Below, one piece after another: positions 27,494-34,781 of a stretch of DNA of 64,000 nt (positions are counted from its first letter, which is position 1; every line of letters starts with the position of its first letter). The notes under the pieces were generated by a model. That model saw only the letters and a program-made list of their open reading frames with translations. It ran no database searches and was not told the DNA's origin. Source of the stretch: Armatimonadota bacterium (GTDB lineage Bacteria > Armatimonadota > Zipacnadia > Zipacnadales > UBA5352); assembly GCA_051745855.1 (NCBI GenBank), contig JBNJEK010000001.1, positions 9,683-73,682 of the forward strand, read 5' to 3'. The position numbers and the translations under genes were made by a program.

Positions 27494-28462
27494 ATGAAAG
27501 TAGGAGCGCTTTCCGCCGCGTGGAGTGACCAGTCGCTCGAGGACGTCTGCGCGTACTTCGCTGAGGCCGGACTCGACACCATCGAGATCGGCACCGGCAA
27601 CTACCCCGGCAACGCGCACGCAGATCCGTTCGAACTCAAGGGGAACAAGAAAAAGCGCGAGGACTTTCTCGCCACCGTCAAGGACCACGGCCTTGAGATC
27701 TCCGCGTTCTCATGCCACGGCAACCCCCTGCACCCCGATGATACGGTTGCCGAGGAGCACCACGAGGTCTGGCGCGCCACCTGCGACCTCGCGCAGCAGT
27801 GTGAGGTCACCTGCGTCAACGGCTTCTCCGGCCTTCCCGGCGGCGGCCCCAATGACGAGACGCCCAACTGGGTTGTCGCGCCGTGGCCCGAAGACCATCT
27901 CGAAGCGCTGGAGTACCAGTGGGACCTCGCCATCGACTACTGGAAGCGCGAGAACGATTACGCCGACAAGCGCGGCGTAAACTTCTGCTTCGAGATGCAC
28001 CCGAACTTCCTCGTGTACAATCCCGAGACCCTCATCAAGCTCCGCGAGGCCTGCGGCGACCGCATGTGCGCGAACTTCGATCCCTCGCACCTGTGGTGGC
28101 AGGGCATGGACCCGTCCTCATGCGTCCGCTGGCTGCAGGAGCACGGCGAGGTCATCCAGCACTTCCACGCCAAGGACGTCGCGGTCTACGACTGGAACGC
28201 GCGCGTCAACGGCGTGCTCGACACGAAGCACTACGGCGACGAGGTCAACCGCTCGTGGATCTTCCGCGCGCTCGGCTACGGCCATGACCAGCTTGAGTGG
28301 AATGAGCTCATCTCCACGTTGCGCATGTGCGGCTACGACGGGCCGCTGTCGATCGAGCACGAGGACTCGCTGATGACCGCCAACGAGGGCTTCATGAAAG
28401 CCATTGCATTCCTCCAGGAGGTCGCCATCCAGGAGGAGCCCGGCGAGATGACGTGGGCGTGA
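27494..28462 (+). CDS. Sugar phosphate isomerase/epimerase (xylose-isomerase-like TIM barrel)
   Basis: GGGAGGAG lies 7 nt upstream. TIM-barrel AP-endonuclease-2-like motifs are present (IEIGTG, FEMHP, HAKD, LSIEHED). Confidence 0.9.
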   Translation: MKVGALSAAWSDQSLEDVCAYFAEAGLDTIEIGTGNYPGNAHADPFELKGNKKKREDFLATVKDHGLEISAFSCHGNPLHPDDTVAEEHHEVWRATCDLAQQCEVTCVNGFSGLPGGGPNDETPNWVVAPWPEDHLEALEYQWDLAIDYWKRENDYADKRGVNFCFEMHPNFLVYNPETLIKLREACGDRMCANFDPSHLWWQGMDPSSCVRWLQEHGEVIQHFHAKDVAVYDWNARVNGVLDTKHYGDEVNRSWIFRALGYGHDQLEWNELISTLRMCGYDGPLSIEHEDSLMTANEGFMKAIAFLQEVAIQEEPGEMTWA

Positions 28463-28608
28463 ACGGCAGCTAACGTCGGCGCACGCCGGCGAACGGCAGC
28501 CAACGACAGCAAGCAGCGACGGCAACGGCAACGACAGCGGGCGGATGGCAGGACCTGCCATCCGCCCGCCCCGACAACCCGCTCAGATGGCCCGCTGGAG
28601 GTGGCGTC

Positions 28609-30492
28609 ATGCCGACACGAACCTCCGTTCTTGTGCTCCTGACCGCGCTGCTTGTCGCGTCCCCCCTCATCGCTCAGCCCGGGATGCTCCCTCCGCCCGC
28701 GCAGTCCGATGCACATGCTTCCAGCGTCGCGTTCAGCCCCGACGGTGCTCGCCTCTCCGCCGCCGCGGGGTACACCGTCCGGACCTGGCAGATTGCCTCC
28801 GGCGAGCCCGTCGAGGCGCTCAGCGGACTGGGCGAGGGCGTCATCTGCGTGGCATTCGGCCCCGACGGCAGCCGACTTGCCGCCGCCGGCACCGACGGGG
28901 CGGTGCGCCTCTACGACTCTGAGGGCGCCCTCATTGCCACGCTCGAAGGCCACACCGACTTCGTCCGCGACCTCGACTTCAGCCCCGCAGGCAGCATCCT
29001 CGCCTCAGCCTCCGACGACGGCTCGGTGCGGCTGTGGGACGTCGCCTCGGAAGAACTGCTCCGGGAGATCCCCGGGCATCCGGATTACGTGCGATCGGTC
29101 GCATTCGGCCCGCGCGGGCAACTCATTGCCAGCGGCTGCGACGACGGCATCGTCCGCCTCTGGGACGCCGACACCGGCGAGCTTCTGAGGGAGCTGACCG
29201 GCCACACCGACTACGTGCGCGGCGTTGACATCAGCCCCGAGGGTGACCTTGTTGCCTCGGGCAGCGACGACACCACCGTGCGGCTGTGGAACGCATCCAG
29301 CGGCGAGGAGGTCGCGATCCTGCGAGGACACTCCGACTGGGTGCGCGACGTAGCTTTCAGCCCCGACGGCGCGACTCTCGCCTCCGGCGCCGACGATGGG
29401 CTCGTGAATCTGTGGGACGTGGCCTCAGAGGAGATCGCAGGTGCGCTTGAGTCCGGGGCGTGGGTGATGTCCGTCGCCTTCAGTTCCGACGGTTCGCGCC
29501 TTGCAGCGGCCTCCTCAGACGGCATCGTGAGCCTCTGGGACCCGGCCGGGGAGACGCTGCTCGCGCGGGCGGGAGGCGCGACCCCGATGCTCATGCGCCT
29601 GGCCCTCAGCCCCGACGGGCTGACGCTTGCCGCGGGCGCGCAGACCGGGGAGGTCTGGTTGTGGGACCTGCACAGCGATGATGCCCCGGCGCGCACCATC
29701 GACCTCTCCGGCGTGGATTCTGTCGCCGCGCTTGCATTCAGCCGCGACGGAACGGTGCTGGCGGCGGGAGGTGACGGCGCGCAAGTCCCACTGATCGATC
29801 CGGCCTCGGGTGAGATCATCCGCCGCCTCGACGGTTCGCGGGGAATCGTCACGCTGCACTTCGACCGGCGCGGGCGCCTCCGGGCCGCCGGCGCGGATGG
29901 CTCCGTGCGGGCGTGGAATGTCGAGGAGGGTAGCGTCATCTACGAGGCGGGCGGCGCCGGTCATTCGGTGACGGTGGTGTCCGCGGCCTCGGGCAAGGTG
30001 CTCAAGGGCAGTCGGCGGCCCGCCGACTTCGGTGCGGCCATCTTCACCGCCGATGGCGAGCGCGTACTGGCCGGCTCAGGGCAGGATGGCGCGCTGTGCC
30101 TGGCGCTGTCGCCCGATGAGCGGCTGCTCGCGACCGGAAGCAGGATGGGTACGGTGCAGCTCGGTTCCGCCGAAAAGCTTGACGGCACGATCCTGTCGGG
30201 AGATGCGCACACCGACTACGTGCGCGCGGTCAGTTTCAGCCCCGACGGGCGCTTTGTCGCCTCCGCAAGTGATGACGGCACCGTGAAGCTGTGGTCGGTC
30301 ACACGTCGGAAGCTGGTGCGCACGTTCGAGGGGCACACGGACTGGGTGCGCGACGTGCGTTTCATCGACAACGACCGCCTCGTCTCGGGCGCCGACGATG
30401 GCACGGCGAGAATCTGGAGCGCACGGACGGGTGATCAAGTGCGGGTGCTGCATACCGTCGGTCCGGCCTCCGACAGACTTGCCGCACCGTGA
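28609..30492 (+). CDS. Secreted WD40-repeat beta-propeller protein
   Basis: It has a signal peptide and about 14 WD40 units (e.g. GHTDFVRDLDFSPAGSILASASDDGSVRLWD). GGAGGTGG lies upstream. Confidence 0.9.
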   Translation: MPTRTSVLVLLTALLVASPLIAQPGMLPPPAQSDAHASSVAFSPDGARLSAAAGYTVRTWQIASGEPVEALSGLGEGVICVAFGPDGSRLAAAGTDGAVRLYDSEGALIATLEGHTDFVRDLDFSPAGSILASASDDGSVRLWDVASEELLREIPGHPDYVRSVAFGPRGQLIASGCDDGIVRLWDADTGELLRELTGHTDYVRGVDISPEGDLVASGSDDTTVRLWNASSGEEVAILRGHSDWVRDVAFSPDGATLASGADDGLVNLWDVASEEIAGALESGAWVMSVAFSSDGSRLAAASSDGIVSLWDPAGETLLARAGGATPMLMRLALSPDGLTLAAGAQTGEVWLWDLHSDDAPARTIDLSGVDSVAALAFSRDGTVLAAGGDGAQVPLIDPASGEIIRRLDGSRGIVTLHFDRRGRLRAAGADGSVRAWNVEEGSVIYEAGGAGHSVTVVSAASGKVLKGSRRPADFGAAIFTADGERVLAGSGQDGALCLALSPDERLLATGSRMGTVQLGSAEKLDGTILSGDAHTDYVRAVSFSPDGRFVASASDDGTVKLWSVTRRKLVRTFEGHTDWVRDVRFIDNDRLVSGADDGTARIWSARTGDQVRVLHTVGPASDRLAAP

Positions 30493-30515
30493 CATGCTGC
30501 GGCCTTCGCGGGGTT

Positions 30516-30732
30516 GGACAGGAGAGGTTCGTATCAACGGTTAAGGATTCGGAGACCGCGGCAACGACTCTCCAGGCGAGGGCGCCTGGAGTCCGGAATC
30601 GCAAGACCGATCGGAGTCCGGGCGCCTCGCCCGGACGTCGTTTCCCGCCACCCGGAACCACCTGCGCGGCGTGACACGCCTTTCCTGACCCTATCCTTAA
30701 CCGTTGATACGAAGCCGGACAGGAGATGTTCG
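30516..30732. repeat. Inverted-repeat (MITE-like or structured) element
   Basis: The perfect 19-bp inverted repeat CGTATCAACGGTTAAGGAT (30530-30548) pairs with ATCCTTAACCGTTGATACG (30693-30711). The two repeats enclose 144 bp containing internal hairpins. The element is flanked by a 15/16-bp direct repeat, GGACAGGAGA(G/T)GTTCG, at 30516-30531 and 30717-30732. Confidence 0.6.
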
Positions 30733-30894
30733 CGCGGACCGCGAAGTTGCGAGTAGGCGAAGATGTGTGCTACAATCTGAACGAACGATGGCGGCAGGAC
30801 AGCCATCGGCCGCACTGCGCACTAATGACGGTTGACGGTCGGTGTCAGCCGCATCCTTCCGCCGATGAGCGGGACAGACGGGGAGCGACAAGTG

Positions 30895-31773
30895 ATGGCG
30901 CAACAGATTTACATGGATGGCGAACTGGTCGATCGCGATGAAGCGAAGGTGTCCGTCTACGACCACGGGCTGTTGTACGGCGATGGAGTATTCGAGGGGA
31001 TCCGCGTCTACAACGGGCGGGTTTTCCGGCTTGAGGAGCATATCAGGCGGCTCGAGCGCTCGGCCCGCGCCATCATGCTCGACATCCCGCTCTCCGTCGA
31101 GGAACTGATCGAAGCGCATGTGGAGACGTGCCGCGCGAATGACGTGCACGAGGGCTACATCCGCACGCTGGTGACGCGCGGTGTCGGCGACCTGGGCCTC
31201 GATCCTCGCAAGTGCCCGAAGCCGAGCATCATAATCATCGCGGCGAACATCCAGCTTTACAACCCGGAGCTTTACGAGACCGGCCTGTCGCTGATCACCT
31301 GTTCGACGCGGCGCAACACTGCGGCGAGCCTCGACCCGGGTATCAAGTCGCTCAACTATCTGAACAATATCCTGGCCAAGATAGAATGCAATCTTGCCGA
31401 TGTACAGGAAGGCATCATGCTCACGAGCAATGGCATGGTCTCCGAGTGCACCGGTGACAACATCTTCATCGTGAGCGACGGTGAGGTGGTGACCCCGCCG
31501 ATCTCCGCGGGGATTCTCAACGGCATCACGCGGGCCGCGGTGATGGAGTGCGCGGAGGAACTCGGCATCGCTGTCTCCGAGAAGCTCTTCCCGGTCACAG
31601 AGGTGTACACCGCAGAAGAGTGCTTTCTCACCGGCACTGCCGCCGAACTGGTTCCGGTCATCGAAGTAGATGGAAGAATCATCGGGAATGGGAAACCTGG
31701 AGCGACCACCAAACGTCTATTGGACCGGTTGCACGAACTTACGACCTCAGAAGGAACGCCGATATACGACTAA
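30895..31773 (+). CDS. ilvE: Branched-chain amino acid aminotransferase (class IV PLP)
   Basis: The IlvE N-terminus is present (MAQQIYMDGELV...YGDGVFEGIRVY) with the class IV aminotransferase fold. Confidence 0.9.
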   Translation: MAQQIYMDGELVDRDEAKVSVYDHGLLYGDGVFEGIRVYNGRVFRLEEHIRRLERSARAIMLDIPLSVEELIEAHVETCRANDVHEGYIRTLVTRGVGDLGLDPRKCPKPSIIIIAANIQLYNPELYETGLSLITCSTRRNTAASLDPGIKSLNYLNNILAKIECNLADVQEGIMLTSNGMVSECTGDNIFIVSDGEVVTPPISAGILNGITRAAVMECAEELGIAVSEKLFPVTEVYTAEECFLTGTAAELVPVIEVDGRIIGNGKPGATTKRLLDRLHELTTSEGTPIYD

Positions 31774-34572: not shown

Positions 34573-34594
34573 CGCCGGGGACGCAGGTAAACCG

Positions 34595-34631
34595 AGAATC
34601 GCCGCCGCCTGTCACGGTCGGCGGCGATTCT
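34595..34631 (+). terminator. Strong hairpin terminator after clpC
   Basis: It is a perfect 13-bp stem (AGAATCGCCGCCG / CGGCGGCGATTCT) with an 11-nt loop, 23 bp after the clpC stop. No U-tract follows. Confidence 0.55.
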
Positions 34632-34781
34632 GCGTTACATAATGGAGGACCGCCCCGTCGGGCGGCGAAATGCCTGACGTCAAATACTGCACATCTGCCG
34701 GAAAGTTTTACACATCCGGGCGCAAAATCACGCGCCCACCGCGAAGCCGTTTGAACACGCGGAATGCAGGGGAGTGAGTTC

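Follow-up and report, generated by a model that had tools for sequence, protein, structure and literature searches.

A 191-bp non-coding insertion, very probably a MITE, separates a WD40-repeat gene from the ilvE promoter in an Armatimonadota genome

The Correia elements (CREE) of Neisseria produce a TA duplication on insertion, carry IHF sites and promoters, and occur in more than 100 copies. MITEs are usually AT-rich, which is not a defining feature, and orphan MITEs still count as MITEs. In prokaryotes they are described as intergenic elements shorter than 500 bp that form stable stem-loops, carry terminal repeats of 4-30 bp and are flanked by direct repeats (PMC10969869). QMITE2 (Coxiella burnetii, about 190 bp) and Chunjie (Geobacter uraniireducens, 178-235 bp) belong here (PMC10969869). 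MITEAba12 of Acinetobacter baumannii, which is mobilised by ISAba12, has a length of 113 bp, 78% AT and 16-bp terminal repeats (PMC6382973). ISAba12 and its relatives have GGCTTTGTTGCACAAA ends and generate 9-bp duplications (PMC6382973, Table 2). In a full-text literature search we found no report of MITEs in Armatimonadota. This phylum is known almost only from MAGs.

Here, we analysed a 64-kb stretch of Armatimonadota DNA (the window), and we hold with high confidence that its positions 30526-30716 constitute a 191-bp, non-coding and non-autonomous MITE that has inserted downstream of a WD40-repeat gene and ahead of the ilvE promoter. The upstream gene (28609-30492, plus strand) encodes a beta-propeller protein and ends with a stop codon 33 nt ahead of the element. 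The downstream gene, ilvE (30895-31773, plus strand), encodes a class IV branched-chain aminotransferase of 292 aa, whose best homologues are all labelled Armatimonadota, and is followed by a gene for a ClpB-like AAA+ protein. In size, terminal repeats, direct repeats, intergenic position and stem-loop, the element agrees with what has been published on prokaryotic MITEs (PMC10969869). Its G+C content is about 64%. The initial annotation had proposed a MITE or small non-autonomous transposon between these two genes, and this proposal is supported by empty sites in relatives as well as by copies at other loci.

The surroundings of the element contain other repeated or palindromic sequences. The WD40 gene shows periodic DNA repeats of 123-126 nt at 28725-30373, which correspond to the WD40 blades. 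A perfect hairpin, CGGATGGCAGGACCTGCCATCCG, with a 9-10-bp stem lies at 28542-28564, between an AP_endonuc_2 gene ending at 28462 and the WD40 start at 28609. Past the stop of the ClpB-like gene, by 18 nt, positions 34590-34636 form a hairpin whose 23-nt arms are 83% complementary and enclose a 1-nt loop; it is terminator-like but has no U-tract. A putative insertion in the clpB gene of a JGI contig (L017, 6968-8723) was rejected, as the ClpB-like gene is split there into frameshifted ORFs and looks like an assembly or sequencing error.

The borders of the insert were established by comparison with orthologous loci, a check that the initial annotation had proposed. In D1M05_3, an Armatimonadota MAG which is the closest relative found (ilvE 96% identical to that of the window), the WD40-ilvE intergenic region has 201 nt, and its counterpart in the window 402 nt. 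This excess of 201 nt equals the spacing of the direct repeats, thus the whole insert of 201 bp consists of the 191-bp element and a 10-bp target duplication, GGACAGGAGA. When positions 30526-30726 were removed from the window, the junction aligned without gaps with the corresponding loci of D1M05_3 (L012) and of a JGI relative (L015), both of which are empty and hold a single copy of the target. In agreement with this, BLAST placed the window flanks on positions 2009-2093 and 2081-2267 of L012, and the overlap of these two segments is the target. The site is empty in four loci altogether, namely L012 and L013-L015 (two Logan contigs and one JGI contig). The target sequence GGACAGGAGA is single in the empty sites of L012, L013 and L015. 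The window has two copies of it, at 30516-30525 and 30717-30726, and the right copy has the native spacing to the ilvE promoter. An nhmmer profile built from three copies of the element (see below) matched at 30526-30714.

These comparisons also changed the dimensions given initially. The element had been taken for 182 bp, which the empty sites and the other copies correct to 191 bp. The reported 16-bp flanking repeat, GGACAGGAGAGGTTCG at 30516-30531 and GGACAGGAGATGTTCG at 30717-30732, does exist, with 15 of 16 positions matching, but the true duplication covers 10 bp. A target duplication of 16 bp was rejected since GGTYCG is, according to the MAG copies, the element's own tip: the last 6 nt of the left repeat are the tip GGTTCG (GGTCCG in the MAG copies), while on the right a native lookalike sequence occupies these positions.

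We searched for further copies by scanning 185,579 species-representative genomes (one per species) for exact matches to the 18-nt arm GTATCAACGGTTAAGGAT of the left terminal repeat. Seven stretches were found, three of them in D1M05_3, which is the only one of the 185,579 genomes where the 18-mer is borne by an element. The three stretches represent two independent copies, of 206 bp (L005) and 189 bp (L006), as L001 is the far side of a contig break within the L006 copy; together with the window, three independent copies are known. The search for additional copies suggested by the initial annotation has thus yielded related copies at unrelated loci of this MAG. Both are intergenic and adjoin genes for a URO-D family protein, an M48 peptidase and a 593-aa protein, which are unrelated to the neighbours in the window. 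Each copy is flanked by its own duplication: CCGGGATCG/CCGGGATCG in L005 (9/9), GGCCGGACA/GGCCGCACA in L006/L001 (8/9) and GGACAGGAGA in the window (10/10). The three target sites have no motif in common. Outside D1M05_3, four genome matches and a single viral-contig match to the arm had no element around them. Those in L002, L003 and L020 were rejected as chance, the similarity being confined to the 18-mer, and so were those in L004 and L007, which extend over 19-21 nt within coding ORFs.

The L006 copy provides a second pair of filled and empty sites. The intergenic region between the M48 peptidase and URO-D genes measures 342 nt in D1M05_3, the element included, and is empty in three relatives (L047, L048 and L049), with 132, 137 and 147 nt, respectively; the URO-D proteins of these relatives are 83-85% identical. 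After the M48 peptidase stop we observed a GC-rich hairpin (GGGCCCGCGGCC...GCGGGnCC; L001 6109-6160), which is conserved at the equivalent position of L047 and L048. This hairpin is probably the terminator of the peptidase gene, and the MITE inserted just past it.

Other searches gave no further copy. The window itself contains no second one, as judged from mismatch-tolerant searches with the arm, core and flanking-repeat sequences, and from the 24-nt repeat with up to 7 mismatches. The nhmmer profile of the three copies found none in approximately 390 kb of retrieved loci; in JGI metagenome contigs both the core pattern and the 19-nt arm had 0 matches; three patterns gave only chance matches in viral contigs (checked by reading or by search for a second inverted arm); and blastn against a plasmid collection gave nothing relevant. 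The single copy in the window is what would be expected of a palindrome that arose by chance or was generated locally and never moved. However, the inverted repeat is the sole perfect one of at least 17 nt within 3 kb in the entire 64-kb window, the arm had 0 matches in 100 dinucleotide-preserving shuffles even at 3 mismatches, so that zero matches are expected by chance, and related copies exist elsewhere while the orthologous sites are empty. An immobile palindrome therefore has a negligible probability.

Within the MITE, the left terminal inverted repeat GGTTCGTATCAACGGTTAAGGAT occupies 30526-30548 (plus strand) and the right one, ATCCTTAACCGTTGATACGAAGCC, 30693-30716 (minus strand). The tips read GGTTCG... 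on the left and ...CGAAGCC on the right, where the tip GATACGAAGCC is the same in 3 of 3 copies. The inverted repeat had been described as perfect, 19 bp long and spaced by 144 nt; its perfection and spacing hold, but its length is 21 nt (TTCGTATCAACGGTTAAGGAT, 30528-30548 and 30693-30713), and with one indel at the tips it reaches 23-24 nt. Between the repeats we distinguish a short spacer of 14 nt (30549-30562), a core of 79 nt (30563-30641) and a long spacer of 51 nt (30642-30692). The core consists of a closing stem, AACGAC/GTCGT, which encloses two perfect hairpins with 9-bp stems (30570-30591 and 30616-30636), both already recognised in the initial annotation, as was the internal duplicate GGAGTCCGG, present at 30588 and 30613. 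The two hairpins are similar to one another, contain four TCCRGGCG half-sites in total, and are predicted to be able to pair also with each other into one long hairpin. The predicted fold of the element region has an energy of about -112 kcal/mol, with z-scores of -6.7 for the plus and -5.8 for the minus strand.

The three copies were aligned with the MAG copies in the orientation of the window's minus strand. The arm on the side of the long spacer matches in 18 of 18 positions between the window and the MAG copies, and that on the side of the short spacer in 14-15 of 18; the 18-nt sequence GTATCAACGGTTAAGGAT is identical in L005 and L006. The core matches in 74 of 80 positions, whereas the spacers, at about 50-56%, are unconserved across lineages and essentially unalignable (9 matches in 15-16 aligned positions for the short one, 31-34 in 55-69 for the long one). 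Between the two MAG copies the core is identical (79/79). At the core edge of L005 (5955-5990) there is a 17-nt tandem duplication (ACGACGTCCGG...), so that copy sizes vary. The tip with an extra C (GGCTTC) is beside the long spacer in the window and beside the short spacer in the MAG copies, which could result either from inversion of the interior between the terminal repeats or from two independent 1-nt indels.

Conservation of the core so much above that of the spacers is not predicted by neutral decay of a dead transposon, and the core probably serves transposition or persistence, e.g., as a protein-binding or structure-forming module. One may go further and assume that the element is mobile but retained because its core has a function for the host or for the element, be it as a structured small RNA, as a protein-binding platform with the four half-sites, or as a terminator or insulator that separates the WD40 gene from ilvE. 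This would supplement the MITE explanation rather than exclude it, and we regard it as possible, though on the unlikely side. The contrast between core and spacers across two lineages, the identity of the core between the MAG copies and the very stable predicted folds speak for it, and so does the location of the element, which in both the window and L001/L006 immediately follows the stop of one gene and precedes the next. On the other hand, Rfam gave no match, and the two strands do not differ in how well they fold: consensus structures computed from the three copies for each strand showed no informative covariation and favoured neither of them. Moreover, relative to the co-directional flanking genes the core has opposite orientations in the window and in L001/L006 (n = 2), which argues against a strand-specific RNA role. 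Neither a U-tract terminator nor a promoter was found inside the element, and in all the DNA examined (approximately 390 kb) the hairpins occur only within copies of the element. It should also be considered that two lineages were sampled, and that recent transfer combined with replacement of the spacers could mimic constraint on the core. The more specific notion that the core is a selected functional module, carried among Armatimonadota genomes by the terminal repeats, is in our opinion quite doubtful. If true, it would explain why a core of about 93% identity between lineages adjoins unalignable spacers, and it might explain why the interior appears flipped relative to the tips between lineages. 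Whatever its function, the conserved core is the only feature of the MITE that might reveal what a transposase or a host factor recognises in it.

The element has no coding capacity. The ORFs across it are short, spurious and inconsistent in frame between copies, and its six-frame translation had no homologue in either of two collections, of 5.8 billion and 1.84 billion proteins. With respect to RNA, Rfam models gave no match to the whole window at gathering thresholds; for 30400-30950, with E-values up to 10 accepted, the best score was 19.5 bits against a threshold of 50 (E = 0.6), i.e., noise.

Given its strong structure and its position ahead of ilvE, the element could be a cis-regulatory leader of this gene or a pair of operator sites, both of which had been considered in the initial annotation. 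However, a search for sigma-70-like promoters gave a single match in 30300-31000, TTGCGA-18-TACAAT at 30747-30776 on the plus strand, with a TG-extended -10 hexamer, and this match is downstream of the element, the -35 hexamer being about 30 bp away from it. The element is therefore located upstream of the promoter-like site, outside the stretch that runs from the promoter to the start codon. The promoter-like site is conserved in L012, L015 and L016/L018/L019. More precisely, four distinct orthologous loci, which include a clade with ilvE only 83% identical, preserve GACAGGAGAT together with the promoter block GCGAAGTTGCG...TGTG.TACAAT. Orthologous ilvE loci retain both the promoter and a 118-nt leader while lacking the element entirely, and at the orthologous position only the 10-bp target motif is conserved, which makes the paired operators unlikely as well. 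In addition, the related copies adjoin the unrelated genes named above. Since the element is upstream of the promoter and absent from orthologs that keep this promoter, a leader or operator function in ilvE control is extremely improbable.

The motif GACAGGAGAT is also the target of the MITE. The duplication restores a copy of GACAGGAGAT beside the promoter, so that the promoter architecture is preserved, and the insertion was probably near-neutral for ilvE. The motif itself may be a regulator site or an UP-type site. The actual 5' leader of ilvE (30777-30894, 118 nt) is conserved separately from the element. Three hairpins are predicted in it, and the four sequences compared show a few compensatory changes. 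As neither an Rfam match nor a leader peptide rich in Ile, Leu or Val was found for it, it could be an undescribed leader structure.

Long terminal repeats and duplications of 9-10 bp are hallmarks of DDE transposition; insertion of the IS200/IS605 type gives neither. The 9-10-bp duplication suggests a DDE transposase with 9-bp staggered cuts, which for the MITE would come in trans from a full-length insertion sequence whose ends match. Such a transposase would bind the terminal repeats and cut the target with a 9-bp stagger, and gap repair would then leave the 9-10-bp target duplication. The core, being a doublet of similar GC-rich hairpins able to pair with each other, resembles REPINs, and the element might be a palindromic repeat that is moved otherwise, either a REP/REPIN doublet or palindrome-associated element mobilised by an IS200/IS605-type (Y1, RAYT-like) transposase, or one moved by a site-specific recombinase. 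But each copy has long terminal inverted repeats and 9-10-bp duplications of unrelated sequence, solo hairpins were not found in approximately 390 kb, and the absence of a shared motif at the three target sites speaks against it too. We consider movement by such a route very improbable.

Duplications of 8-9 bp are also made by IS1, IS256 and some IS4-family elements. The 9-10 bp duplicated in all three copies of the MITE agree with the 9 bp of the ISAba12 type, and are not specific to that family. The tip GGCTTCGT matches the ISAba12-type tip, GGCTTTGTTG..., in 7 of 8 positions. The IS903 consensus and the IS256 ends also entered the comparison. The full-length terminal repeats were no more similar to the ends of ISAba12, IS903, IS1 and IS256 than shuffled sequence was; among 20 end comparisons (IS1, ISAba12 relatives, the IS903 consensus and IS256) the best shuffle p-value was about 0.01 before correction. 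The other reference ends came from Table 2 of PMC6382973 and from IS1A of E. coli K-12. The window contains no transposase gene and no second pair of arms, even with 7 of 24 mismatches allowed, and no autonomous partner was detected in the approximately 390 kb of retrieved loci or among the exact 18-mer matches in 185,579 genomes. MAGs often lack insertion-sequence copies, and because of this the absence of a partner is weak evidence. The MITE represents a previously undescribed family of an ordinary kind of mobile DNA.

Proteins identical to those of the window's WD40 or ilvE genes are encoded in four NCBI assemblies and two Logan runs. Assemblies of the window's species include GCA_041686575.1, GCA_046498395.1, GCA_964448785.1 and GCA_041685545.1, and that of D1M05_3 is GCA_046540615.1. 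L041 is the only contig of the window's species that spans the locus, and it is 100% identical, the element included. Eight short-read contigs of the same species end within the element, four on each side: the left-hand ones end at 30551, 30551, 30576 and 30711, and the right-hand ones begin at approximately 30641, 30667, 30690 and 30691. Such breaks are typical of repeats or strong palindromes, and they suggest that the element is repeated in its own genome. Four Logan contigs from two runs (L009, L011, L044 and L045) stop symmetrically 3 nt inside each arm, at 30551 and 30690/30691, which could reflect a repeat, structure-driven loss of coverage or heterogeneity of the population. The element accounts for the breaks of short-read assemblies of this organism at the WD40-ilvE locus. 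For annotation, the stretch should be treated as a mobile-element insertion, and not as a regulatory RNA or operator of ilvE, while the clean pairs of filled and empty sites can be used as strain or species markers.

Among the systems described, Correia elements share with the MITE a size of about 100-200 bp, terminal repeats (of about 26 bp in Correia), transcripts forming long hairpins, and insertion near promoters and gene ends. In contrast to their TA duplication, 9-10 bp are duplicated here, and IHF sites and promoters were not detected. REPINs, i.e., REP doublets mobilised by RAYT, resemble the core in having paired, similar GC-rich hairpins foldable as one. They have, however, neither long terminal inverted repeats nor a target duplication, both of which are found here in every copy, and in the approximately 390 kb examined there was no RAYT gene and no hairpin doublet lacking terminal repeats.

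By comparison, QMITE2 and Chunjie are of the same size class and likewise have terminal and direct repeats, an intergenic position or one 3' of an ORF, very stable predicted stem-loop transcripts and variation in copy size. They belong to other phyla, are unrelated in sequence and reach tens of copies per genome, whereas 1-2 copies have been seen so far here. With MITEAba12 the element has in common that it is non-coding, that its terminal repeats start with GG(C)TT, that its 9-bp duplications vary in sequence, that its centre is highly conserved, and that it is mostly intergenic, with filled and empty sites; the copy number is low and variable in both (1-22 per genome). The differences are that MITEAba12 is shorter and AT-rich, with shorter repeats (113 bp, 78% AT, 16 bp) than the present element (191 bp, about 64% GC, 21-24 bp), and that it has a co-resident partner, while none was found here and the terminal repeats show no significant similarity to ISAba12. 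Furthermore, the interior is here a GC-rich double hairpin, and outward-facing promoters were not detected. Overall, the closest counterpart of the element is MITEAba12 as regards the 9-bp duplication and the conserved centre, and QMITE2 and Chunjie as regards size.
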